The notes below the pieces were generated by a model. That model was not told where the DNA came from, searched no databases, and was given only the letters and a program-made list of their open reading frames with translations. Positions 12,471 through 39,350 of a stretch of 64,000 nt of DNA are shown here, piece after piece (the first letter of the stretch is position 1; each line of letters starts with the position of its first letter). The stretch is from Psilocybe cubensis. Its lineage: Eukaryota. The stretch is taken from the NCBI GenBank assembly GCA_017499595.2, contig CM039002.1, positions 1,674,001 to 1,738,000 on the forward strand, read 5' to 3'. The position numbers and the translations under genes were made by a program.

Positions 12471-12696
12471 TTGTGACATGAACAGCGCCTCCATCTGCTC
12501 TGGGGGCGGAGGTGACACAAAACAAGCAGCCTTTGCGCTGCTGGTTTTCAGAGGAGATGGTAGTGGGGACTTGGACCTCTCCATATTGCTGGTTTGTCGA
12601 GGGTTGAGGGAGGATTTGGGGTGACACGGACCAACAACGTGGGGAGCTGCTGGTCGCCAAGGGTCAAGACGGCTCCGGCGGCATAAGCATTCAGAA

Positions 12697-13100
12697 CTCG
12701 TAGCCAAGATCTACACCATCCTTGTAACCTCCATATCTAAATGATATGGCGCATCAGAAACCTTTTTCAAGCCTCTCGCAGAAGACATCAGCTTGAAATG
12801 ACTCATACAGTACAACAGAGCACGCTCCTGCAGCTTCGCGACCTTGAATTCCAGCTTGGAGTGTAACGTGAAAGCCTCAGTTGTACATCGCCTCACGATT
12901 TAGAAAACACATTCCGACGGGAAATTCAGGGATGTGCCGATATCTACCACTGCAAACTGGATCATCAGTATGCCATTACAGATCATTTGCGTCCTTCGCT
13001 AAATGATTAAAAAAGGACAGCGAGTGGAAGGCAACACACCCTTTTATTTTTTTCTTCCACTCTACCAGGTGTGGTACTTCTGGAACCGATGAAGTAATGA
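12697..13100 (-). pseudogene. Truncated 5' copy of the SRA/YDG gene
   Basis: Inverted copy of about 4460-4870 that ends after the GGYxDxVDLGYE exon. The start codon position reads ATT. Confidence 0.8.
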
Positions 13101-13454
13101 TGATGGATAGAGGCAAAGAATGGGCATGGCTTGTTTGGATCCCTCGCACGCTAATTGAACAATTGTGGTCAACAGCAACGGTCTGGCTTGCAACTTTTCT
13201 AAGTATTAACTTGAGCGATACATCTCTTTCAGAGTTGCGGACCGTTTGTTCAAACTATCGATTATGGTAATAAAAGTAGCAACTTTGGCAGTATATCTAA
13301 GATTGAGTATTTACCTAGTATATACAGAGGTGGCGGGTGGTAGGGTCAGTGTGAGCTATGATGCCGCAATTTGGGGAGAATTTAAACCATAGTTTATTGC
13401 CACTTACTTGCGTATTCACGCGCGACAAGTACCTCCCACCTCCGACAAGGCGGA

Positions 13455-15304
13455 TCATGTATAGTTGATTTGAAATTTTTCGCCGTGGCCTCTGATGCTT
13501 TCACCTTGACGAACCAGATCCAAAATGGTATCCGTAGCCCAAACAGGTTCTGCTGATGAATGCCTTGAGTGAAGTCGATTTCGTAAATTGTCGAACCAGG
13601 AATTCTGAAAACAAATTAATAATAATTTTTACAATAGATCTCGATTTGCACACCAAGAAAAAGTTGTTGCTTTGTTTAGGGTTAAGAGTCAAAATCCCTA
13701 AACCCTCATCAACATCGTTTCAAAGCAGAAAAATAAAAAGGAGATAGCAACACACCGTCAGTCTCGACAATGAGACAGGATTTAAACATGGCCTCCAGCA
13801 GAGTGCCCCAATCAGAAATAAAGCCACTCTGCATACACCTAGAAATTAACGGTGCCTTGGAGAGTTTACCATGTCCAACCTTCTCATCAGTCTTTGCAAA
13901 TCTGGACCATGTGTAATCATCAACAAAAGCCAGTTTAGCATCTGGTCGCTGTTGACTCAAAGGTTCAGTTGGGGTCCGTTCTGGAAAACCTATGAAAATG
14001 TACCCTGGAAAACATATATTGAAGAATAAGATCCGATGGATGAAATGGATACTAAAGGTGTTGTCAGAAAAAGGCTCGGAAAGGTGTTTCGTTGCCACTC
14101 ACATTACGGACTTCGACATTGTTGTTTTGAGTAATGTCGCTATTCACACTGTCACTGTCGATACCGTGGTTTATCTCCTTGTTATTGATCTCAGCCTCAA
14201 GTTGAAGAGGCTCTTCGTCATCTATCTTGGCGGGAAGCACCAGGTCTGAGATAGGGGGAGTTGAGGGCAACTGCGAAACGGGGGTATTGTCGGAATCTAT
14301 TTCGTCGATTTGCACGTTCCACTCAAGGTCGGAAAGTGCAATCCGTATCCCGCGAATAAATAAACAACGTTCTTGAAGATCAACCCCCCCGTAGCTTCTC
14401 CCCTCATAAGATACGATGCCAGACTTACTGGCACACTGCATGTAATCATTTGAGAATTCGAAAGATACATGCCTGCTTCCCAGAAAACGTTTGTGGGGGA
14501 ATAGAGCCGTTGAGTGCGATGGTGCTTTATCGTATCCTGTGACAACATAAAGGCCACCGTTGGGAACGGAATACGAATGTCTTCCGTTGTTCAAATATTG
14601 CATCCAACGTTCAGCGTGTGTATTTAGGTGTTCCTGTAAGCGAGACATTCCTTTGAAGTCTTCTCTGCTGGCACCATCAGGCAGGACAACGGCGACCGCT
14701 TCTGGCTCTGAAGACTTGAACTTGAGGTGACTGTCGCAATTATCAGCGTTGAGTAGAGATATACAATTCCAGACGTACAGGGGAGACTCGGAAACCCGAG
14801 TGACATCGACACCATTACTTGCAATAACAGATCCAGGCGCAAAATAATCAGGTATTTTCAGAATCTCGTTGTCGGTGGGAGGATCTAGTGGGAAATAGCC
14901 CTCTGGCAGCTTATTTGGAAACAACTGGTTCAATGGATCGTTGCGCGGGAGAAAAAGATTGAAGACAAATATGAAGGTGCCGCTATCATTTATAAATCCA
15001 ACGTCGCCGATCTCTACAATTCGCTTGGAATAGGGATGTGGTAATTGCATTCTTTGGGCAATCCACGGTGGAAATCCATTGCCTAACATCGAAAGTCCAC
15101 GGCAATATATGTTTGAAGCGGTATGTTCGCGAGGTTCGATCAAGTTCGGAAAGCCAGCCACATGTTGAATTTTACTGGAAGCCTGCGGCACGCCAATGTC
15201 TTCTGAGAAATAGTAAATTCAGTTTGTGCCTCTATACACTTTTGAAGAACTTCACTAGAGCGGTTTGCAGTATTCGCTGTAAGGTTGCGTATGCTGGTTC
15301 TCAT
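13455..15304 (-). CDS. Family A copy A3, apparently intact
   Basis: ATG at 15304. ORF 14064-15191 covers the core. Downstream exons match A1 and end at ...GEKFQINYT-TGA (13455). Confidence 0.8.
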
Positions 15305-15613
15305 TGTCGAGCACTTGTCAACCCAAAAGGTTTGACACGTATGGAAGGCAGGCTTAGAAATGAGACGAAAAGAAGTTTGCCAGACAGCAGTCACCGGGGA
15401 AAGTGTAAAATGTGAACCTGTGGGAGTGCCACGCCTGCATCAAATGGACATGAGGGTCGTGAGACCTTGGTGAGACCAGAATATCTCGTTTACGAGAATT
15501 AATTTCGCGGACTATCTGGCGGAAAGTCCAGGGAAAGTACGGCGAACAATGCAGGTTCTAATATGTGACCACAAGTAAGATCGTTCATTGCCTTTCATGC
15601 TCTTTCCCATATG

Positions 15614-17214
15614 ATTCCCACGAGTGGGTTTCGTGGTTTAATTTTTCAATCGCCAAATTTTTGGCGCATTCAAGTTGGGCCGTGTCTCTGCAACCGGGCC
15701 GATTTCAAATTACATAAGCTCAGACATTTCACGGTCAAATCACTGGCTTGGCCAGTGTCCTACACTGTTAGTCTCGGCCTCCCATCCTCTTTCGGATCGG
15801 TTACCCAATATGGGTAACCCATCGTAAGAGTCTGGGTCACAACCAACGGTCGCAACATACCATTGGGTTCGTGGTTTTCTCGCATTTCCTTGGCACTTTT
15901 TCAACAACTGTACTGTCAAATCAAAGGTGATCTTTGCCTTAGAAATTCAAGGAATGGTCAACCATGTAATGGCATTGCTATTGTTTCTCCTAATGGCCTA
16001 TATTATGCACACAGGCATTCTCATAAAAAATGCTTTCCGTCTCGAAAGTGAAAATGGTTGATCCAACATTGCTCACAATACTTACAGTTATATTTATTAT
16101 GATTCTAAGTAAAGAGTAAAGTAGTATGGATCCTGTACATGTGTATAAAATAGTGGTAGGGGCAATAATGTTTTTGGCCAGCAGATATGCCAAGGAAATG
16201 CGAGAAAACCACGAACCCAATGGTATGTTGCGACCGTTGGTTGTGACCCAGACTCTTACGATGGGTTACCCATATTGGGTAACCGATCCGAAAGAGGATG
16301 CGAGGCCGAGACTACTACACTGTCATAATTAAACGTGTAAAAAGTGTCTGAGTTAACATGGACAAATAATTATGTAAACACAGAACCCTAACCTAACAAT
16401 CATATGAATTGATTATTTGGAGAAAATTATAGGTAATTTCGGCCAAGCCGGGGTCATGCAGCCGAAGGCGCATCTTCCCGAGTTCGGACTGATCCTCTTT
16501 TTTCTGTAGGGTGTCGTTGCTTATGGCCTCCTTTTTACCTTGAGAAAACGTCTGATGCGCCCCGTATACCTGTTGTTTGCTGTTTTGCTTACCTTTCTAT
16601 ACTTGTTCTTTGTTGTATCGCTTCCTATTGCTCTTCTTCCTCGCCTCATGCCTTTGTCATATGTCAAAATTTCTGCAACGCCCGTCTCCGTCTCTTTTAA
16701 TCCGGTTGTTTCTTATCATTATCTGTCTCAACATTTTTGTGCTTTGCTTCCAGGTTTCCCTGATATTGACCGATATCAAACGGTGACTTTTTCCACTCCT
16801 AACCTATATCTTACATTTGCCATGCAATTTGTCGCCTTGTCGGAGGAATTGGATGTCGACGCAGTCTTTTGTGCTAGTTGGTTGACTGTTTGTGAAGCGT
16901 AAAAAGGTGCATGTCTGCATTTTTTGTTGTATTCATCCTTATAATTTCGCAGTACCTAATCCTCGACGATGTTTTTTTTTGTATACGGATTGCTTAATTA
17001 CATGCCTTAGAACAATATTCAATGACGTACCTACAAATTGCTCAATTACATGCACCATCATTGACATAGAATTGACCCATAAAGACGTTGATCTTATTTT
17101 TTTCTTCTTTCGCTAATCCTTCCCTTCAATAACATATACTTTACCTCTCTTAAAAGCTATACTCTGCCAAACAGTCGTGGGCATTGCCGGTTTCAACCGG
17201 CGTCACCGTGAATT
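15614..17214 (+). mobile_element. 1.6-kb insertion, Helentron/Helitron2-like non-autonomous element
   Basis: Absent from the paralogous site near 1995. The 5' end ATTCCCACGAGTG matches the sub-terminal CAGTCGTGGGCAT (17172-17184) as an imperfect inverted repeat (11/13). A hairpin GCCGG-TTTCAA-CCGGC (17186-17201) follows, about 13 bp before the end. No clear target duplication. Confidence 0.55.
15769..16314. mobile_element. MITE (about 546 bp) with roughly 127-bp TIRs and a 9-bp target duplication CTACACTGT; Mutator-like
   Basis: 15769-15895 is a near-perfect inverted repeat of 16188-16314. CTACACTGT lies at 15760-15768 and 16315-16323. The interior is AT-rich and non-coding. Confidence 0.92.
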
Positions 17215-17723
17215 ATAGATTGTCCTCGAAATTGAGTATCCACCAGATGCGGACGGCAGATACGGTGCCCTCACCTGACCTAGAGAGCGTGGGAGACGCG
17301 ACTTTAAAAAAAACGTTGACTCCCGCGTTGCTCCCGCGTGCTTGGAGACTCACTAATCGTTACATCCTAATCATCCCTAATCGATAATCTCCAATCCATA
17401 CCGAGTCTAGTATGCCATATAAAATATTGACAAGATATGCTGCTCCGAACATAGCTGTTGCACATATACATGGTCATACCCACCTTTTGGCAAAATACAT
17501 GCAAAATACCCACCCGGAAATTTGCCAAAGCCTACTTAGCGATGTTTTTCCCCACTTGCGGAGTCAGAAATTGAATGCATACATCTTGAAAAGTAAGATC
17601 ATGATAACGAAGATAACGCTGACTGATTAATCCTCGTGTTTTCCGCATTCTATAACACCTGCTGCTTCTCCCTTCATAAGTCTTCAGACCTGTGTAACTG
17701 AAACTCAACCTCAATTCCTTAAG

Positions 17724-19803
17724 ATGTCATCTCAGACAGAGCCCTCAGGACAGAGAGCATTTCGCCCCCTCCCTCGTGGTATGTGTAACATAACTAGCAT
17801 TTCTATGCTTTTTGGTGCTCTGATTGTAACTGATTATACCATGCTTTATCATCCCATCGCATCAGTGGATCGCACTGGAGAGCACACTGACTCGGAGGCA
17901 TCTCAAGTAACGGTTGAGGTAAGTACTCTTAAAACCTTGCTCGTCTAAATTCATTGATGGAGAATGTACTAGTCACTTGGGGATTCATTCGATACCCTCG
18001 GAGTTGATGATACCATATCTGAAACTATTTACTACTCGGAGAGGGAGCGTCCTCCTACGTACTATAGCACCAGGGTTACCGAGGTTGTACGGTCTTACTC
18101 TATCCCTGTATGTGCTTGGGTTCATTTGAGGAATGTGTTCTTATCTGACAGCATCGTTGACGTTCAGGAGGATAGTCAAATTTCAACAAACTGGAGACCT
18201 GGAGCAGGGTACCCACATCCTGACATTGGTCAGTCGTTAACCGTTTTAAGTCACGACTACGGAAACCAGGTAATTTGGCAATTATCACGATTATGCTTAA
18301 ACATAAATTGTTGTCATAGAGCGGTAACAATGTTGCTGGTAATGCAGATGCGACTGCAATTACCAACCTTGGATATCATGACGTACCAACCCCCAATTCC
18401 GAGCACAACAGTCCAGGGATTTATGACAGCTTTGTACATGTGCGTGATTAACATATTTGACTACATTTACTGGCTAAATTTACGGAATCTAATACACAGA
18501 CTCCGACGGGGGCAATAACAGGAGAACGTGAATCAAATACCATGATTCTCAGCCCTGTTCGGAGACAGAACTATGACACTGCTCCGATAAGTAAGTCTCC
18601 AACTTTTAGTACGGTGTAAACGTGATTATATTGAATAATTCTCTTCAACAAACCTTTTTTCAGACACGTCGTCGTCGTCTGGGAAGACGCCTTCGCGTTC
18701 AACGCTTTCGTTCTCTCTGACAGGCTCCAAATCTTGTTTGTGTTAAATTTTATGAAGTTTTTTCAAATATAATCATTAACTTACAGCACCCCACATTATA
18801 GATACCAAGTACATCAACAAAATGGAGAAAAAAGTATGCCCATTTAGTAGTCACACAATTTAATGTGAACATGCGCTAACACAAACCTCTATCTATCGCA
18901 GGATATACCATTAACCGGCAGGCCTTTGGCCTACATGCAATCCAATGTATTGGATACACAAGATTGTTTTCCCCTCTGGATGCATGTGCTAGCCACATCC
19001 TTGCAACCTGGAGACGTAGGAATCTTCGACGAATATGGAACTTTCTGCAGCCACTTTAACATCTCTCTCACATGGCAGCAGAATTGCGAGCGTTTTGGTC
19101 GAGATCCTCCGAATGGGTTTAAGCCATTTGGGAACATCAATGTGCTCCCCACATCATATATCCCTGATTTCATGAACCGCACTGAGGGATTTCAATCTTT
19201 TGACCGAACTTTTGATACGTATGGATCTCAATCCAGGTACGTTTTATTATTGGCAAAGTTTTTATGTTCTGATTATTGACAAAATGAAGGTCAAGATTCA
19301 AATTCAAGCTTATACCAGACCTGTGTGACGAAATTGAGGCAGCACTCATTTTTCCCGATAGGTTGCCTTGCTCGAAGAACTACGCCTCGGATTTGTTTAC
19401 TAACCTCAAAAAGGAAGAAGGGGTGGATTACCTTAAGGCCCAGGTCGACAATTGGTACCATCATATATCCTCCCAGATATCGCACGAAGTCAAGAATGCT
19501 CATCTTATTCTTATTGAGAGGACGTACACAACAGGGCAATGTGGCCAGGTGCTTTACCGAAGAGACCGGAATAAGAGAGTTGACAAGGGTTTTATTGAAG
19601 GGGTTTTTGAACCAAGGCCGACAGGTACTGATGCTCAAGGCCAACCATGGTACGAGTATGAGTGGACGGTGGTGGGGGATGGTTCTGGGAAAGTCTGGGT
19701 GAGGGATAACAAATCAGGAGGTCACGGTGTGGGTGGACCTGACAAAGAATATTGTATTGGGATCTCTGCGCTCACTCTGACGAAAAAGAAGAAATTATTC
19801 TGA
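17724..19803 (+). CDS. Family B copy B2, complete: Ser/Thr-rich disordered N-terminal arm plus C-terminal putative gasdermin-like domain
   Basis: ATG at 17724. Short exons splice in frame (...NYDTAPI/NTSSSSGKTPSRSTLSFSLTGSKS/SPHIIDTKYINKMEKK/DIPLTGRPLAYMQS) into ORF 18926 (FPLWM..LQPGDVGIF..G.F..HFNI). After an intron at about 19237-19289 it continues EAALIFPD...NWYHHI...HLILIERTY...YCIGISALTLTKKKKLF-stop. Confidence 0.75.
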
Positions 19804-20277: not shown

Positions 20278-22099
20278 CTAATTGATCACAAATTTCTGTC
20301 CCGGGCCTCTTATGCTTTCACCTTGGCGAACCAGGTCTACGACAAGGGCCGTAGCCCAAACCGGTTCTGGTGATGACTGACGTGACCGAAGTTGCTTTCG
20401 CAGACTGTCAAACCAGATTGTCTAAGGAATATTTTGGAGTCTGAATAGTTTACTTAAGAGATCTCAATGTGCATACCATGCTAAAGTTTTTGCTTTGCTT
20501 TGGGATAAGATTCAAAATCCCTAAACGCTTATCAACATCTTCGTAAAGCAGAAAAAAAAGAGATAGCAACACACCGTCAGTCTCGACAACGACATGCGAT
20601 TTAAATATGGCATCCAACAAGATGCCCCAATCAGAGATAAAGCTATTTTGCTTGCATCTAGAAACCAATGGAGCCCTGGCGGGTTCATGAAGTCCAACCT
20701 TCTGAGAAATCTTTGCAAACTGCGACCATGTGTAATCGTCAACGAGAGCTAGCTTGGTATCTGGATGCTGTTGACGCAAAAGGTCAGTTCAGGCCGGCTC
20801 TAGAAACACTCATGAAATGCACCGTGGAAAGCATAATCTGGAGAATAAGGTCTGATGGATGGAATGGATACTAAACATTGTCAGAAACAGTCCCAGAAGA
20901 TTGTTTGGTTACCTCTCACTTTACAGACTTGAACTTCATTTTCTTGAGAAATGTCGCTATCAATAGTGTCCGTGCTGCAGGTATTATTGATGCGGGTCTC
21001 AAGCTGGAGGGGCTCTTCGACATCTATTTTTGCGGGGAGTACCTGGTCTGAGATAGGGGGAGTCAATGGTAATGGCGAAATGGGGGTGTCCTCGGAGAGT
21101 CCTTCGTCAATTTGTATATTCCATTCGGGGTCAGAAAGTGCTATCCGTATCCCGCGAACGAATAAACAATGCTCTTGAACATCACGCCCGTGGTCTCTCC
21201 CTTCATAAGAGTCAATACCGAGCCTACTGGCAGGTTGCATATAACCTTTTGCGAATTCAAAAGACGTATGCCTGCTCCCCAAGAAGTGTTTGTAGGGGAA
21301 TACAGCCGTTGAGCAAGTTGGCGCCTTGTCACATCCTGTGATAACATAGAGACCACCATTGGGAACAGAATATAACGTTCCATTGCTCAAATATTGTATC
21401 CAACTTTCAGCGTGCGTCTTTAGGTATTCCTGTAAGCGAGATAGTCCTTTGAAGTCTTCTCTGCTGGCACCATCCGGCAGAACAAGAGCGACCGCTTCTG
21501 GCTCTGAAGACCTGAACTTGAGGTGACTGTAGCAAGTATCAGCGTTGGGTAGATATGTTTAACTCCAGACGTACAGGGGAGACTCAGAAACCCGAGTGAC
21601 ATCGACACCATTGCTTGCAATAACAGATCCAGGCGCAAAATAATCAGATATTTTCAGAATCTCGTTGTTGGTGGGAGGATCCAGTGGGATGTAGCCCTCA
21701 GGAAGCCCCTTTCGGAATAATTGGTTCAAGGGATCGTTACCCGGAAGAAAAAGATTAAATGAAAATACAAAGTTGCCGCTGTCGTTTAGATATCCAACAT
21801 CACCCACCTCAACAGTGCGTTTGGAATATGGCTGTGGCATAAGTATTCTAGAGCCAATCCACAATGGAAATCCGTTGCCTGACATCGAAAGTGTACGGCA
21901 GTATATGTCTGAAGCGGTATGTCTGCGAGGTTCAATTAAATTCGGAAAGCCAGCAACACGCTGTATTTTATTGAAAGTCAAAGGTGCGCCATTGTCCTCT
22001 GAAAAACAGTCAATTTCAATCCTGTACATTTTATTGGTAAAATTCACCATGTCGCTTTTCAGCATTGGCTCTAAGTTTCGGGACGCGGAGTTTTCTCAT
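20278..22099 (-). CDS. Family A copy A4
   Basis: ATG at 22099 (MRKLRVPKLRANAEKRH). ORFs 21559-22065, 20881-21390 and 20450-20779 match A1 exons. Ends EPVWATALVVDLVRQGESIRGPGQKFVIN-TAG. Confidence 0.8.
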
Positions 22100-22294
22100 A
22101 TTTGAGTGGCACTTGTCAACCAACAAGTTTTCACACGTATGGAATATAGGCTTAGAGCAGAGACGTCAGCGAGAGAGAAGTTACCAATTGGAAAAACTAA
22201 AAGTTGAACATGAACGGTTTAAGTGCCATACGGATTGGACGTGAGGGCCGTGAGACGATCATTACTTTGATGGCAATACTGCCTCGCTATTTGG

Positions 22295-22489
22295 CAAACA
22301 CATTCCGATGGGAAATTGAGGGATGTGCCCATATCTACCACTGCAAACTGGATTGTTTGTATACTATGACAGAACATTGGCACCGTTCGCTAAATAATTG
22401 AAGAAAGACAACGATGCGCAGGCAACACACCCTTTTACTGTTTTCTTCCTCTCTACCAGGTGTGGTAGTTCTGGGACCGATGAAGTCAT
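22295..22489 (-). pseudogene. Second truncated 5' fragment of the SRA/YDG gene
   Basis: Homologous to 4464-4660 (MTSSVPELPHLVERKKTVKG...GRYGHIPQFPIG), then breaks off into the A4 upstream region. Confidence 0.75.
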
Positions 22490-22856
22490 GATGATGGATA
22501 GAGGCAAAGGATGGACATGGCTTGTCTGGATCCCTCTCACGCTAATTGAACAATTGCGGTCAGTGACAACGGTCCGGCTTATAATGTGACTTTTCTAAAG
22601 TATTGACTTGAGCGATACATCTCTTTCAGAGTCGCAGTCCATCTGCTTAAAGCTATTTATTATGGTAGTAAGAGTGACCACCTTTACAGTATATCTATGA
22701 TAGAGGATTTACGTAGCATAGTGGTGGCGGGGTGGGTATCACTGTGAGCCATGGTGCCGCGATTTGGGGAGAACTTAAACCATAGTTTATTGCAACTTAC
22801 TTGTGTATTCACGCCGCACGACGAGTGTCTCCCACCTCCGAGTGTGCCGAGCCGGT

Positions 22857-24706
22857 TCACGAGTAGTTGATTTGAAATTTCTCGCCGGGGCCTCTGATGC
22901 TTTCACCTTGACGAACCAGATCCAAAATGATATCCGTATCCCAAACAGGTTCTGGTGGTGAACGTCTTGAGCGAAGTCGCTTTCGTAATTTGTCAAACCA
23001 GGAATTCTAGAGACAGAAACAAAATAAGTAAAAGCTTTGACAATAGATCTCAATTTGCACACCAAGAGGAGGTTGTTGCTTTGAAGATTCAAAATCCCTA
23101 AACCCTCATTAATATTGTTTCAAAGCAGAAAAACAAAATTAAGATAGCAACACACCGTCAGTCTCGACAATGAGACAGGATTTAAACATGGCCTCCAGCA
23201 GAGTGCCCCAATCAGAAATAAAGCCACTCTGCATACACCTAGAAATTAACGGTGCCTTGGAGAGTTTACCATGTCCAACCTTCTCATCAGTCTTTGCAAA
23301 TCTGGACCACGTGTAATCATCAACGAAAGCCAGTTTAGCATCTGGTCGCTGTTGACTCAAAAGGTTCAGTTGGGGTCCGTTCTGGAAAACCTATGAAAAT
23401 GTACCCTGAAAAACATATATTGAAGAATAAGATCCGATGGATGAAACGGATACTAAAGGTGTTGTCAGAAAAAGGCTCCGAACGGTGTTTCGTTGCCACT
23501 CACATTACGGACTTCGACATTGTTGTTTTGAGCAATGTCGCTATTCACACTGTCACTGTCGATACTGTGGTTCATTTCCTTGTTATTGATCCCAGCCTCA
23601 AGTTGAAGAGGCTCCTCGTCATCTATCTTGGCGGGAATCACCAGGTCTGATATAGGGGGAGTTGAGGGCAATTGCGAAACGGGGGTATCGTCGGAGTGTA
23701 TTTCGTCGATTTGCACATTCCATTCAAGGTCAGAAAGTGCAATCCGTATTCCGCGAATAAATAAACAATGTTCTTGAATATCTGCCCCGTAGCTACGCCC
23801 TTCATAAGAGACGATACCAAGCTTACTGGCAGGTTGCATGTAATTATCGGAGAATTCGAAAGATGTATGTCTACTCCCTAAGAAGTGCTTGTAGGGGAAA
23901 ATAGCCGTTGAGTAAGTTGGCGCTTTGTCGCATCCTGTGATAACATAAAGGCCACCGTTGGGAACGGAATACAATTGTCTTCCGTTGTTCAAATGTCGTA
24001 CCCAAGATTCAGCATGTGTCATTAAGTATCCTTGTAAGCGAGATATGTCTTTTAAATCTTCCCTGCTAGCACCATTCTGCAGAACAAGAACAACCGCCTC
24101 TTGCTCCGAAGACCTGAATTTGAGGTGACTGTTGCAAGTATCAGCATTGATTAAGATTTGTACAATTTCAGACATACAGAGGCGAGTCGGAAACCCGAGT
24201 GACATCCACACCATTAGTTGCAATAACAGATCCAGGGGGGAAATATTCAGGTATTCTCAGAATCTCGTTGTCTGTAGGAGGATCCAGTGGCACATATCCC
24301 TCTGGCAGCGCCATTTGAAACAGCTGGTTCAAGGGATCCTTGCTCGGGTGAAAAAGATTGAATACAAATATGAAGGTGCCGCTATCATTTATATATCCAA
24401 CGTCGCCGACCTCGACAGTTCTCTTGGAATAGGGCTGTGGTAATTCGATTCTGGTGGCAATCCACAATGGAAACCCGTTACCTGACATCAAAAGTGTACG
24501 GCAATATATGTTTGAAGCAGTATGCTGACGAGGTTCGATCAAGTTCGGAAAGCCAGCCACATGTTGAATTTTACTGGAAGTCGGCGGCACGCCAATGTCT
24601 TCTGAGAAATAGTAATTTCAGTTTGTGCCTCTATACACTTTCAGTGAAGAACTTCACTAGAGCCGTTTGCAGTATTCGCTGTAAGGTCGCGTATGCTGGT
24701 TCTCAT
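22857..24706 (-). CDS. Family A copy A5
   Basis: ATG at 24706. ORFs 24168-24590, 23465-24223 and 23139-23360 match the family exon structure. Ends GEKFQINYS-TGA. Confidence 0.8.
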
Positions 24707-24946
24707 TGTCGAGCACTTGTCAAACGAGCGTGCATACAGATATTGAATGGAAATTCAGACCTATGCCAAAGAAGCGTGCATCGAACTGAGAGTGGAAAGC
24801 GCAAAATGAACGTGTAGGTGCCGATGTAATGAACATTACGGGCGTGACGGCCGTGAGATTATTTCTGACTCCGTACTGTAACGCCGGTGGCATTTCCGCT
24901 ATTTCTCTTAGATGCAAAAGTAACTAAATAATTTGTGCTAGTCCAT

Positions 24947-26834
24947 TCACCAGTAATTAATAACAAATTTCTCGTCCCATCCTTTGATGTTTTCACCTTG
25001 GCGAATCAAGTCTTCAATCAGCTCCGTAGCCCAAATACTAGTATGTTCTACGGCTGAATGTCTCTTGCGTAAATTGCGAAACCATGGAACCTAGAGAAAA
25101 TATGAAGGAATATCCTGCGCACAGAATGTTATTGTACGCACCAAGGTCCGTTTTTTTTTTGTTTTTGGGATGAGATTCAAAATATCTAGTGAAGGTATCA
25201 TTAACTTTCAACCTCAACGCTGAAAAAAGAGGTAGCAACATACCGTCAGTCTCGACAATGATATGCGACTTGAAAATTGCTTCCATCAGAGAGCCCCAAT
25301 CAGAGATGAAGCTACTTTGCATACACCTGGAAATCAATGGTGCCCTGGAGAGCTCTCGAATTCCAGTATCCTGACCAATGTTTGCAAAACGCGACCATAT
25401 GTAATCATCAACCAGAGCTAGCCTAGCATCTGGATGCTGTAGGTGAAAAGTTTAGTTCAGGCCAACTGTATAAACGCCAATAAGATATACCTTTGAAAAC
25501 ATGACTTGCAGAATAAGATCTGATGGATGAAATGGATACTACACGTTGTCAGAAGCAGCCTCAGGAAGTTTGATTACAACTCACATTACGAACCCGAACC
25601 TGCCGTTCTTTATTGCTCTCATTATCATCGCTATCAGTGCTGCTGTCGTCAGGATCATTGTCAGTACTGTGGTTGCTGCCGTCCCTGTTGGTACTGCGGC
25701 TTAGTTCGTTGTTACTGACATCAGATCCCTGGTGAATAGATTCTTTTTTGTCTGTCTTTGGAGGGGTTATATTGTCTGAAGTTGGGGGTTTTGAGGGCAA
25801 TGAGGAAATGGGCGTATCCTCAGGGGGTATGTCGTTGACTTGCCAGTTCCATTCAGGGTCGGAAAGTGCTAGCTTTATTCCGCGGATAAACAAACAATAT
25901 TCTTGACCTTTAGGCCCGTCCCTCTGATAGACGTGGAGTCTCTCTTGAGGTCCGCAATGCATGTGATTATTCGAGAATTCAAAAGATGTGCACCTACTCC
26001 CTAGAAAGCCTTTGCGAGGAAAGATGGCTGCTGAGAACGATGGCGCTTTATCGCATCCTGTGATGATATAGATGCCACCGTTAGGAATCCGATACGGCAC
26101 TTTCCCGTTGTTGAAGTATTGTATCCAACGTTCAGCGTGTGTATTTATGTATTCCTGAAAGCGAGATATGCCTTTGAACTCTTCTCTGCTAGCACCACCC
26201 GGCAGAGAAAGAGCGACCGCTTCTGGCTCCGAAGACTTGAACTTGAGGTGACTGTCCGCAAATATCAGTCTGAGTGAGATATATACGATTCTAGACGTAC
26301 GGAGGAGATTCAGAAACCCGAGTGACATCGACACCATTACTTACAATAACAGATCCAGGCAAAAAATAATCAGGTATTCTCAAGATCTCGTTGTCGGTGG
26401 GAGGTTCCAATGGGAAGTATCCCTCTGGAAACCCCTCGGTAAACATCTGGTTCAAAGGATCGTTGCTTGGGAGAAAAAGATTGAATACAAATACGAAATT
26501 GCCCCACTCGTTTAAATATCCGACATCTCCCACCTCCACGGATCGCTTGGAATATGGCTCTGGTAGTTGTGGTGTGTAGCCAATCCACGTTGGAAATCCG
26601 TTGCCTAACATAGAAAGAGCACGGCAATATATGTCTGGTGGGTTATGTTCGCGAGGTTCGATCAAATTCGGAAAGCCAGCAACATGCTGTATTTTACTGA
26701 AAGCCGGTGACGCGGGGCCATTGTCCTCTGAAAAACAGTCAATTTCAACCCTGCCTTTGTACATTTTATTGGTAAAATTCACCATGTTGTTTTGCAGCAT
26801 TGGCTCTAAGTTCCGGGACGCTGAGCCTTCTCAT
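24947..26834 (-). CDS. Family A copy A6 (most divergent)
   Basis: ATG at 26834. ORFs 26291-26800, 25561-26337 and 25038-25337. Ends IWATELIEDLIRQGENIKGWDEKFVINYW-TGA. Confidence 0.8.
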
Positions 26835-27163
26835 GTTTGAGTGGCACTTGGCGACCGACAAGTTCTCGCACGTATGGAATACAAGCTTAGAACAGAGACG
26901 AAGGTCAGCGAGAGAGAAGTTATCAACTCGAATTAAAACTCAAGTTGAATGTGGAACGGTCTAAGTGCCATACGGATTGGACGTGAGGGCCGTGAGACGA
27001 TCATTATTGATGGCAAATACTTGATGACTGGACGCGCTTCGCTCAGGCTGGCGGCCCGCGGGGCTCGTTTGTCTTTGTACGGTGCAGAGAGGCTATGCTA
27101 GGCAACTGCGGATTGAATATTGATTTGTTACCCGTCGAGCACTAGCTCAAGCAGTCCCTCGAC

Positions 27164-27748
27164 ATGATTATCATCGCCCAGGATATCGATGGCACGACTA
27201 ATGTCGACACATCCGATGCAGCGTCGACCAACACGCTCGTCAGCAAGGAGCAAAGGATCCCTCCCCATCTCGTAAAGCTCATCTTTGCATCCCTCTTCAT
27301 GTCGACACTCGCGTTCAGTTTCTCGATTTTGAACAGCGTAGATGTAGTCAATATTGTATCTGACGGTGTCGTTGCACCTATTCTGGCGTATATCTTCACT
27401 CTCCCTCATCACGGCGCCGCCCTGTTGCTGAAATGGCTTCAGCACCACGATATGGCGTCCATTCTTTCCTTTTCCCCAACATCCACGCGTTCCCTGTGGT
27501 ATTCAGCCGGACTAGTTATCCTGTGGCTTACATCAGTCTCGATAAGCTGCAGGAACATCAACTACACCATTACCTTTGAACCAGCAGATCTTGAATGGTC
27601 GGCAGAGGCCACGGTAGTTACTTCGGTGTTGGAATTTACATTGATTCTGGCCATTGCTCTTGTTTGCTTCCTACATTATCGACGGCAACAAAATCCCGGG
27701 CAACAAGAGCCACCAACCGTTGCAGAGCATAAATCAGTTGAGGTGTAA
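27164..27748 (+). CDS. Hypothetical multi-pass (about 4 TM) membrane protein
   Basis: Intronless 194-aa ORF with about four hydrophobic segments; tandem paralogue at 28429. Confidence 0.75.
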   Translation: MIIIAQDIDGTTNVDTSDAASTNTLVSKEQRIPPHLVKLIFASLFMSTLAFSFSILNSVDVVNIVSDGVVAPILAYIFTLPHHGAALLLKWLQHHDMASILSFSPTSTRSLWYSAGLVILWLTSVSISCRNINYTITFEPADLEWSAEATVVTSVLEFTLILAIALVCFLHYRRQQNPGQQEPPTVAEHKSVEV

Positions 27749-28428
27749 TAAGCAAAGTTTTTGTTCTTTGTTACGTTGGCATTAAGGTGAGCACCTAACG
27801 CAGGCGTTTGCATATATCACATAGGTTGTTTGAATCTGATAGATCAATGTGAAAATAGGTGGCTATCTTCTTCAATATACATACTACCCCGTGGCAGGGC
27901 AGCATGAGCATGCGTCGCGGTTAGGCAATCCGAAGGGGTTGGGGCGTTGGCTGCAGTAGACAAGTGTGAACACGAGCAGAAGTAAATGTTTACATTACCA
28001 CTGGGACTCGTAGCGGACAACATATTCCCTGGACAAAAATAGCAGTCATTTCTATCAATGTACCCATAACATAGTCAAGGAAAGATCTTATAGTGTAGGT
28101 AAAGATAACCATTTAGGCAGAGGCGCTTAAGATTTTCTAATTTTAGATGACAATTCTTGTCTCAGAATATCTGTCGCGGCTGCAACAGAATCATGAACTT
28201 TGAAAATATCAAGAGCCGAACAAAAGAGATAAAATACATCCTGACGATTCCAAGGTACAATTCTAGACAGTCCGAGGAGAATGCAGGCCTTACCCTTGGC
28301 CGTGGATGTCGGTAACGGCTGAGGTTCCGACATTCGATGTCCTTTTTACGTAGTGAGTTGTACAGTAGGGGTCAGACGCAAGTCTGAGGGTGCTTTCGCC
28401 CTACTCGAAGTATCTCTCAGTATCTACC

Positions 28429-29017
28429 ATGATCATCAACGCCCTAGACACTCATGGGACAGCCGTCACAGATACGTCCGACGCAGTATCGACCAACACC
28501 CTGGTCAGCGATGAACAGAAAATTCCCAAATATTTCGCAAGACTTGTTGCCGCTTCACTCGTCATATCGACACTTGCTTTCTCATTTTCCGTCGTGAACA
28601 ACGTCAGGTCAAAAAATGTCATTTCAGGGCGTAGTCGCACCCATCCTGGCCTTTATATTCACCCTTCCCCACCACGGGGCGACGCTGTTATTGAAATGGC
28701 TCCAACACCACGACATGGCATCCATTCTGCCTTTCTCTCCGACATCAGTTCCTGCACTTGTATATTCTTCGACGCTTGTCGTATTCTGGATTACCTCACT
28801 CGGTATATGCGTCAGAAACATCGCGTACGTTCTCCGATTTGAGCCAAATCTTACGCCCAATTGGTCAGCGAAAGGGACGGTTGCAACTACAGTCCTGGAG
28901 TCAGCTCTGATAGTGGTTATCACCTTTATGTCCTTCTTACGCTATCGTCGGGAGCGTATCACAAGCCAGTCTGAGCCGACACCTGTGACACCTCAGTCCG
29001 AGCTGAAGGCTATTTGA
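28429..29017 (+). pseudogene. Frameshifted paralogue of the 27164 membrane protein
   Basis: MIINALD...NVIS and GVVAPILAFIFTLPHHG are in different frames. Two bases are missing near 28627 relative to the paralogue's SDGVV. This could be a sequencing error. Confidence 0.65.
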
Positions 29018-30205: not shown

Positions 30206-33200
30206 ATGCCCTCCAAACGGACTGTCCAGCCAGAAAAATCCGGCATCCTCTCTGGTGTATTCAGTCTTCTCAGCAGGGAGTTTGATTCTTTTGTGGCCAG
30301 TGCCACCGGCTCCTCATCATATGTGCGCCAAAGTTGGGTTTTTCTTGCTCCGGCGTTGTCTAATTAACGCGTTTTTTTTCGCGCAGGGTCCATCCAGCTC
30401 TCGACAGTTGTTGGAAGATGAAAGCGAAGAATTTGATGACGATTCGCAGGATGAGGGTGAGGATATTCTGCATGAAGGATGGGACGAGCCTTCGCCGCCT
30501 CGCAAACGCCCTCGGAACTCGCGACATGAACGCCGCGCATCGACTCCCCCCAAGGCTCGTCAACACGCGCCATCCCGTAAACGTCCTGCACAACCACCCC
30601 CAGAAGATGCAGTACAGTCGGACGAAGGTGCTTTCTTGACTTATCTGACGTGACTTTACGGATTTTAATTGTAGATATGCAGACGTTGACAATTCCGAGG
30701 AATCCCATCGCTCTCGGTCTCCTCCTCCCCCTCCCCCACGAACTCTCAAGCGTCGCCCTTCGATGACCATGCCAGGGTCTCTTTTCATTCGCTCGCCCTC
30801 TCTAGAACCACAAGCACAAACTCGCAAACGCGACCGACGCCAGCGCGTCCGGTTCTCTTCTAAGAATCCAGGATCACCATCCAACAGACAAACATCTCCC
30901 TCGCCCCAACGAGAAGACCCGCCCGTAGATAGCCCTCGCAGACGCAACCTGCTATCTCCCTCCGTCAGGTCTGCTGTGGATCGATTCCACGACGACGATG
31001 CCGATCCGTCGCTTCTCCTACCGAGCCCGACAAAATCACCACACGCGTCGGGGAAAATCCAGTACACCGACACCGCGCGCCCGCCTTCGAATTCTGAGGG
31101 CTCGCCTACGCTTAGCAGGAAGGATAAAGGTAAAGCGCGCGCCTTGGATCCAAGTTCCAACGAAGAGTCGGAGACATCCGGCTACCTGCGCATGGAAGGA
31201 AAGGAGAGGGAGCTTATTGCTGCCCGAGAGGAGTTGGATAGGAATCAGCGTCGTGAAGAAGCTAATAATGAAGGCGGTTCTGCTCGGGCGGAATCAGATC
31301 GTGATGCGGACAAGGCGAGAATAAGAGAGCTCGAGATGGAAATTGAGAGGCTGAAGGCAGAGGTATGCACTCCAGACGGTGTTCAGATACCTAACAACTA
31401 AGTGTATTACTCTAGCTAATGAGGAGACCGAGTTCAGGCTTAGGCGGGGTACCACCACCGCCACCGCCGCCGCCTCCTCCCCCTCTCAACTTTCCCAAGA
31501 AAAACCTTATTTCAATATCATCCGACGCAGACCCACATAACCTTTTCGCTTCAGCGCGCGCATCTCTCAAACACGCACCTACCCCAGTCGAAAACCCCAT
31601 CGTGCCCCTTCGCAAGGTAGGCGTATCGTCAATGGGCATTGCCCCGGAAAAGATGGCTGCGTTCCTCAACGAGATGAAGACGGTGCGTTTGAGAAAAACG
31701 TCGGAACGGGCGGCGTTGGCGGGCACGAGCGGTTCTGGGGCTAATGCGAGCTTTTCGGGTACCTCTTCGACGGCTGCGAATAGCAGCTTCGCTCTCCCGC
31801 CCAGAAGACAGTCGATGTCTTCGTTGCAACGGCCGCAACTTGATAATTCCATTTCAAGTAGTAGACCCCGCCCAGTAGCACCGTCGACATCAACGTCATC
31901 TAGTACTGTGATTGGCGAGAAACGCAAACGAGTTGACGATACTAGTACGTTTACACTTTACGCGCCCATGTATTTTTTTTTTGCTAATCTTTCTCTATGC
32001 TTAGGTGGTCCTTCGAAACGACACACTGGTGTTTCGTCAGCCGAGTCCAGCTTTGCATCAGCTTCGACGTCGTCTCGTTCTTTACCACCAGGCTCCTCGA
32101 TACCCACCACCTCCCTCTCCCGCCCCATCCATCCAGGAAAACAGGCCAATATACCCAACAGCAATACCACAACCTCCACATCTCGTACACTTCCCAACAA
32201 CAACAACAAATTCATGCAACCTAGAGGCGGCAACCCGACACCATCCATCACCTCCGCGCCGACACCGTCGCTCTGTTCGGACAACGAAGCCGAAAGGGAA
32301 GATACGAGCCCGTACGACCGGCCTCCGTCTACGCCGCCGATTGACGATGGAGTGTCGGTGGGAGGAGCTGGGGCTGGGGGGCCGTCGCGGGCGTTCTTTA
32401 GGTTCCGCGGGAATGGGATACCTGTTGATGCGGGTGAGGTTAGTAGATCGCGTGGTAGGATTAAGGACGCGCGTATGGATGTTTCGGTTTCGAATTTCCG
32501 GGGACATGAGGGCGACGATGAAGATGAGGAGGGTGGTGAAGAAGAGGATGAGGAAGTAGATGAGGAAGAGGAAGAGGATGTGGAGATGGGCGAGGATATT
32601 TTGCCTGCTTCTTTGCAACGCCCCACAGCACCGTCGCGGCCTCTGGCTTCAGCACCGATTCGAACGCCGACTCCGCAAGAATTGCGAGGTGAACCTGTAC
32701 AGCGAGGTGCTGGTGCACAAAAGCAGCAGCAGCAACAACAACAACAGCAGCAGCAGCAGCAAGCGAAACCGAAATCCAAGCCAAATGTATTTGCCAAACG
32801 TCCACCGTCAACGCCATTTCCAAATAAATCCCCTCGAAGACCACGTCCGCCCAACTCTAATTCATCTCGTCCGCAACGACATGTTGTGCCCATGGCTTCT
32901 ACGCGGAAGGATGATGAAGACAATAGGGAGATCTCTGGTGGGGGTAATCGGAATCAGAGGGGGAGAGAGGAGGCGGAGGAGGAGGACCCGCTTTCGTTGT
33001 TGTTCTCGTCGCCTGGGAGCATGCGCCCTCCTCCTGTGCCGCCGGCGCGCGGAGCTCAGGTGTCGTCGTCGGACCGTGAGTCTGTGGATGTGGCGAGGAA
33101 GGCTGCTGGAAAGGCTGCTGCTAAGGAGGCGAATGCGCGGACTGAATCACGTCAGCGCGCGAAGCCTCTTCAATCTAAACCTGAACCTGAAGCAGAGTAT

Positions 33201-34388
33201 GAGCACGGGTACGAAGAGGAACGACGGGAGAACATGTTCGAGCGCGAGTTTGGGCGCGAAAGCGAAAGTGACCGCGAGCGCGAAATGGAGGATGAACATG
33301 AACATGATTATGAGCCGCCGTCGTCGCCATCTGTGCGGCGAAAGCGCACGCGCTCGCAATCTCGTTCGTCGGTTAACACGTCTGCGTCGCTGTCTAGAAT
33401 GGCGCAGGCGCGGATGCAGCCGCCTACGCCGCCGCCTCAACCTCAACCACGCACCCAGCGTCACGAGCATGCGCAACAGCAATCGGAGCTCCAGCGCTCG
33501 ACGTCCCAATCCCAATCCCAATCCCAATCGCACTCGAGACGCCCGTCGTCCCGCACGAGCAGACGTCTAACGCTCGATGAAGAGCTGCGTAATGCCGTTT
33601 CTGCCTTTTCGCGCGATATGAACGAGGAAGCGATGGAGGTCGCTGCGGCTGCCGAGCGTGATCGTGTTGATGCAGATGCAGGCAGTAGTGGCGGTCATGG
33701 GCATGGGCATGACGAGCGGGATGAGGCGTTTGAGAGCGGGGCGTATACGGGAGTTGGTATGCGCAGCAAGAAGAGGGGGTTTTTGGCGCATGGAGGGGCG
33801 GGTGGGACGCCGGTGTTTATGGGTGTTGGGTATGTCGAGGGTGCTGAGGAGGATGAGGAGGATGAGGAGGAGAGGGAGAGAGAAAGAGAAGAACGAGAGA
33901 GGGAAAGGAAGGTACAGGAGAGGGAGAAGCGTGAACGGGAGAGGGAGAGGGAAAGAGAGAGAGAAAGGGAACGGCAAGAGAGGGAACGGCAAGAGCAGGA
34001 AAGAGCAAGGCAGGAGCAAGAGCAGCAAAGAGAACGAGAAAGACAAGAGAGGGAGAGACATGAACAGGAAAAGGCCAGGCGCGATGTTCGTCGCGAGTCC
34101 CATTCGCGTGCGCGCACCCGTCCTCAGGATCGCAAACGTGCATCGAGCCGCGCAGATCCATTTGACTTTGGAGGCGTCGAAGACGAGCCTGAACACGAAC
34201 CTCAACCTCAACCTGAGCATGTCTATGAACCTGAACCCGAACCTGAACCTGAAAATCCAGATGAAGATCCTGGTCCAGGGAACGGGGACGACGACGAGTA
34301 CATCCCCTCCCCCGTTCGCGCGCCAGCCAAGGTGAAGCCTAAAACGACAAAGGCTAATTTCAAGTCGAGAATCCCGCGAAGGCGGTAG
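30206..34388 (+). CDS. Large low-complexity protein (coiled coil, polyproline, WH2-like motif, polyQ, ER repeats)
   Basis: ATG at 30206 (MPSKRTVQPEKSGILSGVFSLLSREFDSFV). Short introns link ORFs 30255-30653, 30763-31401 and 31419-34388. Confidence 0.75.
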
Positions 34389-35782
34389 TGGTTCCCTTGC
34401 ATTGCATTACATTGCATGGCCCGCTGTCAGCTGTGGATGTGTGATATCTTTTGGTCTCTCTCTCTCTTTTTTGTATGTTCATTTTTTTGGATTTACTAGT
34501 ATAGTACTTTTGGGTATACTTTATTTTATCACGTATCTCCCGCTATTTCTCTGTGGATTGAAGGGACGTGAATTGTACGCGCCCCCGCCACGAGTCGTTG
34601 CCATTTATCCATTTCCATCTCTATTTTATTCTCAACCGTCGCTATTCTTCAGTGCTATCTTGTTATCCCAATCTCCTTTTCCTCCTTTTCAATTTGGTTT
34701 CTTCGTGTGTTGTTTTTTCTTTTCTTCATTTTTTTTTCATTTTCTTGGTTATGTATGTGTGTCGCATGTAACTGTCTGTTGATTTCTTAAATGTTGAATT
34801 TTGATCATTTGTCCTGTTCTCCTCTCCTGTAGCTCTTGCTCTTCGATCGGTTTCAAAGTTCTTCGATCGAAGGTTGATTCTTTATTTGTTTATGTGTGTC
34901 GGTGTGTCGCTTTGTTTTGTTAAGCGCCGAACACTCGCATGACCCTTTGCTAAGGTAAGTAAGATTGGGATTGGGAAGCATGCAGTAGTCCATGATTCAA
35001 AATTTCAGAGCACGTACGATACGTATCCTATTCCTAAGTATATAATAAATATCAGATCAGATCATGAAAGAAGAATGAATGAACAGGGGGTTGGATGCTA
35101 TACTACTATAAAGTAAATATATACGTGACGAAAAAAGAAATGAAAACAAATAGAGAGATAAACAAAAAAAATAAGCAAGGTGTGAAGTGCGAGGTGAAAG
35201 GTGTAAGGTGGGTAAATCGTATCCATGAAAAGGGGGGATTGGTGTGTGTGGGTGCGTGGGTGGGCAGGTGGGGAGGGAGGAAGGGGGGAGGGAGGAAGGG
35301 GTGAAGGGGGAAGCGAGAGGGGGGATATACAAAGGGAAATATAAACGTAGATACTTTGTACTAAACTATGTAGTAGTCGTCGTCGTGCATCGTGCATCGT
35401 GCATCGTCAAATCACAATCACAATCTCAATCAGTCCGTTCGTGTGCGGGTGCGGGTGCGGGTGCACAGCAACAAAAGAAAAAAAAAATTACAACGGCTCC
35501 TGCGCCTGCCTGCTTTTGCGTCGTGTGCTTCAGAGTCGGAGTCGGAGTCGGAGTCGTGGTCGTAGTGGTATCCGCCGTCCGCGTTCTCATCGTCAACAGT
35601 TGCATCAGTAATCGTCTCATCATCCTCGTCATCGTCCTCGTCCTCATCATCGTCCTCGTCCTCGTCTAAATGTCCGTGAAATCATGACCCCCCAATCCAA
35701 AAAATTCCATATCCAAATCCAAATATTCTCACACCCTCACACCCTCATCCTTCCTCCTTCCAACCACCACCAGTACCACCCA

Positions 35783-37481: not shown

Positions 37482-37704
37482 GGTGGTGGGTGAAGAGCAA
37501 GAGCAGCGTTCAAGCAAATGAGCAAAGCTGTGTTGATGTCAAGCAAGTGCAAGCACGTGGACTACTGCGCTACGCCTACGCCTATACTAATCCGATAAAA
37601 ATCAATCAAAAAAAAAGACAAACGACCGTCCGTTGTGATAATTAACTTGGAGCAAGCATGTAATACTATATTATTTCGACTGCTTTTTGCTATGTTTCTA
37701 ATGC

Positions 37705-38821: not shown

Positions 38822-38885
38822 TAATACAGGTGAGGTGAAAGAAAGAAAGACACAGCCACCATCTTCCTCTTTATGTACTCTACTC

Positions 38886-39350
38886 ACACTATTGATCTAC
38901 TATGATCTAAAAGGCTGTGAATGCTCTGAACTGCACTTCGACCCTTTATTATAAAATGGGGTTTTTATCTTCTAGTCCCCTGCAACGAGTTTCCCTTTCC
39001 CAACGATCAAGACGCGCCCTCTATTGAAATAGAATGTGCGTCCATTGCTCCTCTCTGCGACATACACTGACCTCTTTGCAGATGTGCACACATCTGCATC
39101 GGTGGCACCCCAGGAATCTAATATTTTCCTAGACTCTCTCTATGCCCCCCGTCGCCAGTATGCGGCCTCGGATTCAGGCAGTGAATTCTCCCCCAGCTGC
39201 CCACCCTCGCCTACCAATGTCTGCTCCACCGCATACTCCTCCTCATCAGACAATTTGTTGCTCCACGACTCGTTCGACAACCTCCCGGCGTATACCAATT
39301 CACACTTTTATTTTAACCAGAGCCTAGCCTTGCCTTTGCTCAATTCATGA
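38886..39350 (+). pseudogene. Truncated duplicate of the promoter and 5' part of the 42119 zinc-finger gene
   Basis: 38886-39215 closely matches 42015-42355, but a short deletion removes the ATG (CCTGCAA-CGAGTT versus CCTGCAATGGCAGACGAATT). Confidence 0.75.

Follow-up and report, generated by a model that had tools for sequence, protein, structure and literature searches.

Two pairs of divergently transcribed genes, each made up of one member of a family termed A and one of a family termed B, lie in a 64,000-nucleotide stretch of Psilocybe cubensis DNA (assembly GCA_017499595.2, contig CM039002.1, positions 1,674,001–1,738,000 of the forward strand), which is referred to in full as the window. 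The locus raises two questions, namely what kind of protein A and B encode, and whether the two act together, as was assumed by an original prediction of a possible two-component pore or effector-inhibitor module. We judge A and B to be a new gasdermin-fold family of the Agaricomycetes, the mushroom-forming fungi. The best explanation for the whole, to which we give a probability of roughly 60%, is a birth-and-death cluster of this family, in which the C-terminal domain of A would be inhibitory and the proteins would play a role in cell death.

Predicted fold and architecture of A and B

The fold of A was analysed with an AlphaFold2 model of P0008, a complete A-type protein from P. cyanescens, computed from a 70-sequence alignment. 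Its core, spanning residues 41–290, has predicted local distance difference test (pLDDT) values of 64–96 in blocks of ten residues. A Foldseek search against the PDB yielded three matches at E ≤ 0.001, led by the RCD-1 pore (8jyz_A; 6.8e-5); the other two, 8sl0 and 9a84, are bacterial gasdermins. Gasdermins filled all of the first eight rows, with bacterial and animal proteins following RCD-1. VIA-align likewise placed gasdermins in its first 19 rows, with Z scores of 9.4 (180 residues aligned, root-mean-square deviation 4.0) and 9.3 to bacterial gasdermin, and a search that made no use of Foldseek, across 48,161 representative chains, returned gasdermins as the top 10, with Z scores from 9.3 to 5.3, compared with 2.6 at rank 50.

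The model of B2, the B member of the second pair, has core pLDDT values of 49–96. Gasdermins occupied the top five rows of its Foldseek search (E 7.3e-4) and the first 17 rows of VIA-align (Z 7.6 to 4.2). MACPF and CDC pore formers ranked below gasdermins in the structural lists, at Z scores of about 5 or less. At the level of leads, the nearest named clusters by ESM Atlas features were PF26164 Bact_GSDM (0.82) and PJVK/gasdermin (0.79), and comparison of Atlas structures gave template modelling (TM) scores of 0.45–0.47 to gasdermin clusters. We conclude from these models that A and B are both predicted to have the fold of the gasdermin pore-forming domain. The idea that they are pore-type proteins is thereby supported at the level of the fold, gasdermins being at the top for both models. 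In the 70-sequence profile, strands 158–164 and 244–251 (P0008 numbering) alternate between hydrophobic and polar positions; in the remaining strands such an alternation is not clean.

The two families had been described as having opposite architectures, and the models agree, with an extension that is C-terminal to the core in A and N-terminal in B. In approximate A3 numbering, the gasdermin-like core of A reaches residue ~300 and is followed by an acidic linker (~311–385) and a C-terminal domain (~386–511). The linker is disordered and carries a net charge of −8 over residues 311–385, and the first helix-strand motif of the C-terminal domain is kept as far as Lactarius relatives. In B, residues 1 to ~230 are disordered and rich in serine and threonine (26% S+T), and the core extends from ~235 to the end of the protein, which terminates 7 residues past the last core strand with a KKKK motif. 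As in animal gasdermins, the C-terminal domain of A would hold the core inactive until the linker is cleaved or another trigger acts. The B-type proteins would represent an old sister lineage of the A-type, and A and B would be executioners of regulated cell death in allorecognition or defence.

Sequence relations and range of the family

A distant relationship between A and B, proposed from the letters of the window, was borne out by profile comparison. The BLASTP alignment of the two comprised only a shared GDVG..G.F..FN motif (E 0.001), and hhalign joined them with 98% probability (E 2.6e-13, 170 columns); the joint alignment contains invariant positions common to both. A profile search found 95 proteins with E ≤ 0.001 among 8000 scored, and all those with a named source were from Agaricomycetes, mostly Russulales. 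B is much rarer, since a phmmer search of B2 against 1.84 billion representatives retrieved five proteins, including B2 itself. Some family members are fused to extra parts, which lie C-terminal to the core and comprise a GTPase, ankyrin repeats, MLKL_N plus a kinase, and zinc fingers; a WD40-fused cluster is present in the ESM Atlas. Some of the fused members may be merged gene models.

One fused protein, P0083 of Dentipellis fragilis (842 residues), has a gasdermin-fold domain followed by MLKL_N at 518–628 and a kinase at 775–837. Unless it is a merged gene model, this predicted protein would unite cell-death executioner modules of two different kinds. A 10.9-kb metagenome contig (31% GC), obtained with a single-exon B query, was discarded after tblastn gave no A or B match at E ≤ 1e-3. 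A search of the available full-text papers found no description of a gasdermin-like family in Agaricomycetes; a list of 1,884 homologues accompanies PMC8851545 as Dataset S1.

Gene models, transcripts and selection

The A family is tandemly arranged; self-BLASTN and tblastn identified six of its loci in the window, A1–A6, of which A2 is disrupted. The features of the locus are as follows, in window coordinates.

2–1493, minus strand: 5' part of B1 (JR316_0006017, P0013), with its ATG at 1493; the left window edge cuts the gene (open reading frame (ORF) list; tblastn with spliced B2).
1494–2335: spacer 1, 842 bp between the divergent ATGs of B1 and A1 (ORF list, self-BLASTN).
2336–4176, plus strand: A1 (model P0002), an A-type gasdermin-fold gene that appears intact; 509 codons aligned to A3 with 0 in-frame stops (tblastn).
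8096–8578, minus strand: 3' part of A2 (C-terminal domain exons), a disrupted copy, ~1.7 kb from the A2 5' part (self-BLASTN, tblastn).
10270–11665, minus strand: 5' part of A2 (model P0003), a pseudogene with a frameshift near A3 residues 254–293 (tblastn frame −2 to −1; ORF list).
13455–15304, minus strand: A3 (JR316_0006020), 511 residues, seven exons, with introns from transcript contigs and an open joined coding sequence of 1536 nt. Exons: 15304–15256, 15202–14779, 14730–14103, 14051–14004, 13948–13755, 13696–13654 and 13604–13455.
15305–17723: spacer 2, 2419 bp between the ATGs of A3 and B2, made up of homologues of spacer 1 (15305–15588 and 17212–17723) and an insertion (15589–17211).
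15769–16314: foldback element within the spacer 2 insertion, resembling a miniature inverted-repeat transposable element (inverted arms, word depth, loose ends).
17724–19803, plus strand: B2 (JR316_0006021), 502 residues, ten exons (joints in run X1, open coding sequence, model). Exons: 17724–17778, 17866–17918, 17973–18107, 18168–18267, 18318–18439, 18500–18590, 18664–18735, 18802–18833, 18902–19234 and 19288–19803.
20281–22156, minus strand: A4 (model P0004), tail-to-tail with B2; one in-frame stop in the codon mapping to A3 (self-BLASTN, tblastn).
22820–24723, minus strand: A5, an A-type copy; 508 codons aligned to A3 with 0 in-frame stops.
24953–26902, minus strand: A6, the most diverged A-type copy of the window (self-BLASTN, tblastn).

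The ORF list confirmed all four start codons proposed earlier (B1 at 1493, minus; A1 at 2336, plus; A3 at 15304, minus; B2 at 17724, plus), together with the head-to-head arrangement of B1/A1, 842 bp apart, and of A3/B2, 2419 bp apart. Positions 13455 and 19803 are the stop-codon ends of A3 and B2. B2 has A genes on either side, with A3 placed head-to-head and A4 tail-to-tail at a distance of ~480 bp.

Runs X1 and X2 were treated as transcript assemblies because their contigs carry intron joints that are missing from the DNA-like run X3, no run being recorded as RNA. In total, 13 canonical joints marking introns of A3 and B2 are present in the X1 and X2 contigs. All six A3 introns appear as CT..AC joints (plus strand) in X1, and two of the six also in X2; for B2, X1 contigs show seven GT..AG joints, plus one loose end that marks a further intron. 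X2 contigs lie on A3 and none on B2, and no X1 contig covers 15928–17635; these uncovered parts carry no evidential weight. When spliced, A3 is an open frame of 511 codons (coding sequence of 1536 nt) and B2 one of 502 codons. A3 and B2 are thus both transcribed and spliced. The public model of A3 (P0001) lacks 67 N-terminal residues, retains a 48-nt intron and has a wrong tail; P0004 also lacks ~67 N-terminal residues, and the B2 coding sequence is five residues shorter than in the public model P0012.

Two assignments were rejected on the basis of these models. A1 was at first sight a pseudogene with a stop at 2865, which falls within the 48-nt intron revealed by the A3 RNA contigs. N-myristoylation, suggested by the "MG" start of P0006 and P0008, was dropped, as A3 starts with MR.

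Ratios of non-synonymous to synonymous substitution rates (dN/dS) were calculated from codons mapped to A3 or B2. For A3, the values were 0.40 against A1 (dS 0.155), 0.34 against A5 (dS 0.251) and 0.29 against A4 (dS 0.56). For B2 against B1, the part within the window gave 0.46 (dS 0.245; 322 aligned codons, 0 in-frame stops), and the core part 0.64 (dS 0.26). The duplicates are therefore under moderate purifying selection.

Origin of the two gene pairs

Self-BLASTN revealed three inverted matches between the two pairs and their surroundings, namely 2–1999 with 19240–17212 (87.5% identity over 2033 positions), 2046–4172 with 15588–13468 (92.0% over 2128) and 4347–4879 with 13205–12683 (88.6% over 533). 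Both A/B pairs are hence products of a single inverted segmental duplication with 87–92% identity. The pair had been reported as present twice; two pairs do exist, and they are not two independent pairings. Consequently, they provide no replicate evidence of linkage between A and B.

The second spacer contains an insertion of 1623 bp at 15589–17211, in place of 46 bp in copy 1, with ATCAT/ATAAT junctions that resemble a short target duplication. Within it, foldback arms of 127 nt, 99% complementary, are found at 15769–15895 and 16188–16314. In run X3, the bin 15684–15927, which holds the left arm, has a word depth of 191.7, as opposed to ~11.4 on the unique flank (~17-fold), and many contig ends are loose at 15769 and 15809. 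The high depth at the arm indicates that the element is repeated elsewhere in the genome. The transposon that had been proposed in this spacer is hence a reasonable assignment, given a repeated foldback element within an insertion with target-duplication-like junctions. The element was also observed in the transcript-like X1 and X2 contigs, with loose ends that lead into other contexts.

Divergence between the copies is uneven along the segment. The alignable parts of the spacer are 93–95% identical, thus differing by 5–7%, the A introns differ by 8% and the B introns by 11%. Together with 96% nucleotide identity between A3 and A2 in self-BLASTN, this unevenness suggests gene conversion among A copies. 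In the sequence of events that we propose, a segment of at least 4.9 kb would have been duplicated in inverted orientation, giving the A/B pair in two copies. Duplication or conversion between A3 and A2, insertion of the transposon into one spacer and decay of A2 would have occurred later. The locus as a whole would be a cluster in which a family of gasdermin-fold genes evolves by birth and death.

Weight of the evidence for a gasdermin-like role

Several observations weigh against reading the locus as a cluster of gasdermin-like cell-death genes. In terms of the fold, the modelled A protein is a P. cyanescens relative, ~46% identical to A3, rather than A3 itself. The Z scores are moderate, and values of 7–8 can come from a common arrangement; the TM scores are low (0.17–0.41) because many of the matched structures are in the pore state. 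The B model is not independent of the A model, since the B alignment included A-family rows. Past residue 390 of P0008, the C-terminal domain is poorly modelled, with pLDDT values mostly below 60, so that autoinhibition by this domain of A can only be inferred. The gasdermin-like function, membrane activity included, is unsupported here and stands as a prediction.

Sequence searches point the same way. No Pfam family was found for the A and B pieces of the window; the gasdermin Pfam models PF04598 (Gasdermin) and PF26164 (Bact_GSDM) matched 0 of 70 family members at E ≤ 1, and the family profile had 0 matches at E ≤ 10 among 177,635 PDB sequences. By sequence comparison, A and B are not recognisable as gasdermins. 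A protease gene had been reported as absent from the window, and no peptidase family was indeed detected in the 41 ORF translations scanned, a set that excludes ORFs shorter than 120 residues in 27–64 kb and unlisted spliced genes. Finally, exons are no better kept than introns between the copies, with identities of 92.3% versus 92.0% in A and 87.2% versus 88.8% in B.

This similar divergence of exons and introns, the disrupted A2 and the transposon in spacer 2 could mean that the A/B genes no longer have a function and persist as decaying relics or as transposon cargo. Such an explanation is highly improbable, as transcript contigs show splicing of A3 and B2 at canonical sites, their frames are open over 511 and 502 codons, dN/dS is 0.29–0.46 in four comparisons, and the family has been kept across orders of Agaricomycetes.

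It is also conceivable, and in our view quite unlikely, that the gasdermin-like fold is real and that the proteins form no pores, having instead another role, such as that of a scaffold or of a lipid- or glycan-binding protein, which expanded in mushrooms; the A/B neighbourhood would then be meaningless. The lack of sequence-level similarity to gasdermins, the lack of a protease neighbour among the ORFs scanned and a clean alternating hydrophobic pattern in only two strands of the family profile are in line with such a role, and a shared fold by itself shows no function. All top structural matches, however, are pore-forming gasdermins, followed by MACPF and CDC pore formers. Moreover, lineage-specific expansion, pseudogenes, fast evolution and fusions to ankyrin, WD40, GTPase and MLKL_N-kinase parts constitute a pattern of fungal cell-death and immune genes, as outlined in PMC10197012. 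The birth-and-death cluster of gasdermin-fold cell-death genes remains the reading that we prefer.

Do A and B form a functional pair?

Evidence on linkage was available from beyond the window. A further B-like gene of P. cubensis, JR316_0004418 (P0100), is 33% identical to B2 and is found on another contig, of 4.15 Mb, where its locus tag places it between the A genes 4417 and 4419. In the phylogenetic tree, five B-type proteins split from all A-like rows with support of 100/99, JR316_0004418 groups as the sister of B1/B2 with 98/95, and the A genes fall into two clades, one of 44xx and one of 60xx members. An Artomyces sequence wrongly labelled as belonging to the Psilocybe A group leaves the B clade unaffected. 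This topology would fit an old A-B neighbourhood that was inherited at two places. Among the 12 A loci detected in P. cubensis, at least 9 lack a visible B neighbour. In P. cyanescens, one A-like gene was detected, on a contig of 15,212 bp, and one B-like gene, on another of 33,624 bp. The case for a link between A and B is strengthened by JR316_0004418, between A genes, and weakened by the P. cyanescens genes and by the majority of A loci. Two runs of complex prediction for A4 (P0004) with the B2 core (215–507) both scored 0.00; they were performed without supplied alignments or controls and bear neither way. Functional coupling of A and B is unproven; the only hints at it are the divergent promoter region and a second, ancient A-B-A neighbourhood.

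Under a true two-gene module, A and B would form a mixed pore like that of RCD-1-1/RCD-1-2, or the C-terminal domain of A would restrain or license B, with divergent transcription ensuring co-inheritance and co-expression. This possibility is plausible and can be held only tentatively, with the odds rather against it. The starts of A1 and B1 are head-to-head and 842 bp apart, and the alignable spacer parts are better kept between the duplicates (93–95%) than the B exons are, at 87%. In P. cubensis, each of the three detected B-type genes, the ancient JR316_0004418 among them, is adjacent to A genes, and B2 has one on either side. A segment is present after the core in A and none in B, and transcripts of both A3 and B2 are found in run X1. 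There is also a precedent in RCD-1-1/RCD-1-2 heterodimers, which are described as the unit of the RCD-1 pore in PMC11760362.

On the other side, the two pairs of the window stem from one duplication and the 44xx cluster may go back to the same ancestral neighbourhood, inherited a second time, which leaves few independent events. A and B are paralogues, and since tandem duplication leaves its products side by side, their adjacency can be a mere trace of how they arose. A B neighbour is missing at most A loci, the A-like and B-like genes detected in P. cyanescens are on separate contigs, and Flammula has a B-like gene and no A-like match listed among the 8000 candidates scored. In addition, it takes cell fusion to bring the allelic RCD-1 partners together, whereas a pair in the same haplotype that killed on contact would need an extra brake.

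A more elaborate version envisages a cis-encoded death switch of two gasdermins, in which B, devoid of a C-terminal domain, would be the armed executioner, and A would restrain or license it through its own C-terminal domain or through mixed assembly. The fused relatives would then represent the missing pyroptosis-like arm of mushroom immunity or somatic incompatibility. We consider this scenario unlikely.

Other features of the window

A gene with a SAD/SRA domain (4564–7003, plus strand) lies between A1 and A2, with a PF02182 match (E 2e-11; frame 4590–4808) followed by a long acidic region (ORF 5834–7003). Its 5' part, ~0.3–0.5 kb in length, is repeated at 12683–13205, by A3, and at 22281–22598, by A4/A5, with 88–89% identity. 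The position of these repeats beside A copies indicates that the fragment was carried along in the duplications. The ~1.7 kb between the two halves of A2 (8579–10269) contain an ORF of 159 residues (8987–9466) with no Pfam match.

Directly after the last A copy, two neighbouring paralogous ORFs (27146–27748 and 28369–29017, plus strand) share ~70% nucleotide identity over 280 bp; they encode hydrophobic stretches and match no Pfam family. The regions 31416–34388 (plus strand) and 35700–38900 are GC-rich (up to 58%) and contain very long low-complexity ORFs in several frames, one of 990 residues, with poly-Q, poly-S and acidic/basic repeats. Two paralogous genes at 40015–40959 and 42174–43712 (plus strand) have C-terminal motifs that by eye resemble C2H2 zinc fingers, with no Pfam match at E ≤ 0.01; upstream of them, 38882–39221 is repeated at 42010–42362 with 90% identity. 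An ERG4/ERG24 sterol reductase gene is located at 53545–55258 (minus strand). Genes for acetate kinase (PF00871; 60918–62554, minus strand) and phosphoketolase (XFP_N, PF09364; 62651–63762, plus strand) are arranged head-to-head and constitute another divergent pair in the window.

Relation to known systems and significance

RCD-1 of Neurospora crassa (RCD-1-1/RCD-1-2; PDB 8jyz, 8jyx and 8jyy) is the best Foldseek match of the A model, with VIA-align Z scores of 5.6–6.6, and is among the matches of the B model; like B, it has no large C-terminal repressor. Both systems comprise two diverged gasdermin-like proteins, which in RCD-1 act together according to PMC11760362 and PMC10197012. However, the partners in RCD-1 are allelic variants of a single locus, each harmless by itself, which come together upon cell fusion, whereas A and B are paralogues in one haplotype, split at 100/99 in the tree. 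RCD-1 also differs from A, with its linker and C-terminal domain, and from B, with its 230-residue disordered N-terminus, and has no detectable sequence similarity to either.

The HET-Q1/HET-Q2-like pairs of Ascomycota resemble the locus in that a gasdermin-fold executioner is found in a small gene cluster. Both the het-Q1 family and A/B follow birth-and-death evolution with many copies per genome, as given for the former in PMC8851545 and PMC10197012. According to these papers, homologues of het-Q1 are ubiquitous among Ascomycota and occur in clusters with proteases; for 80% of ascomycete gasdermin genes, PMC8851545 reports a protease gene no more than 10 kb away. The neighbour in het-Q systems is an S8 or CHAT protease, unlike the present locus, where it is a second gasdermin-fold gene and no peptidase domain was found in the ORFs scanned. 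A and B are, furthermore, basidiomycete proteins that are not found by Pfam gasdermin models.

Bacterial gasdermins (PF26164; PDB 8sl0, 9a84 and 7n51) give the highest structural scores, with Z 9.3–9.4 for A and 7.6 for B, and are the nearest named Atlas clusters. Unlike A and B, they have a short inhibitory peptide at the C-terminus and a protease as neighbour, and their identity in structural alignments is only 8–11%. The animal gasdermins GSDMD, GSDME and GSDMA3 (Z 5.3–6.7) share with A the order of core, flexible linker and C-terminal domain, but the C-terminal domain of A has no Gasdermin_C match and is poorly modelled, and the A linker is strongly acidic.

Pleurotolysin consists of an aegerolysin partner and a MACPF partner. 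Pleurotolysin A/B and aegerolysin-MACPF pores are, like A/B, two-gene systems of mushrooms, which in pleurotolysin form pores, and MACPF/CDC folds appear below gasdermins in the structural lists. The analogy drawn with pleurotolysin in the original prediction does not hold, given that A and B are homologous and share one fold, unlike an aegerolysin paired with a MACPF protein. Gasdermins outrank MACPF throughout, and neither an aegerolysin nor a MACPF Pfam family was detected in the A and B pieces or in the family members scanned.

Work on fungal gasdermins has so far centred on Ascomycota. If the family is truly gasdermin-like, it would add a large, fast-evolving and unannotated set of candidate cell-death executioners in mushroom-forming fungi. 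It would also bring new architectures, namely a disordered arm at the N-terminus, a C-terminal domain of a different kind and fusions, within a single chain, to modules of the sensor type. Its members would then be candidate genes for somatic incompatibility and defence in basidiomycetes, the genetics of which is unknown, and the A/B neighbourhood would offer a simple, testable case of protease-free mutual regulation between two gasdermin-fold proteins.

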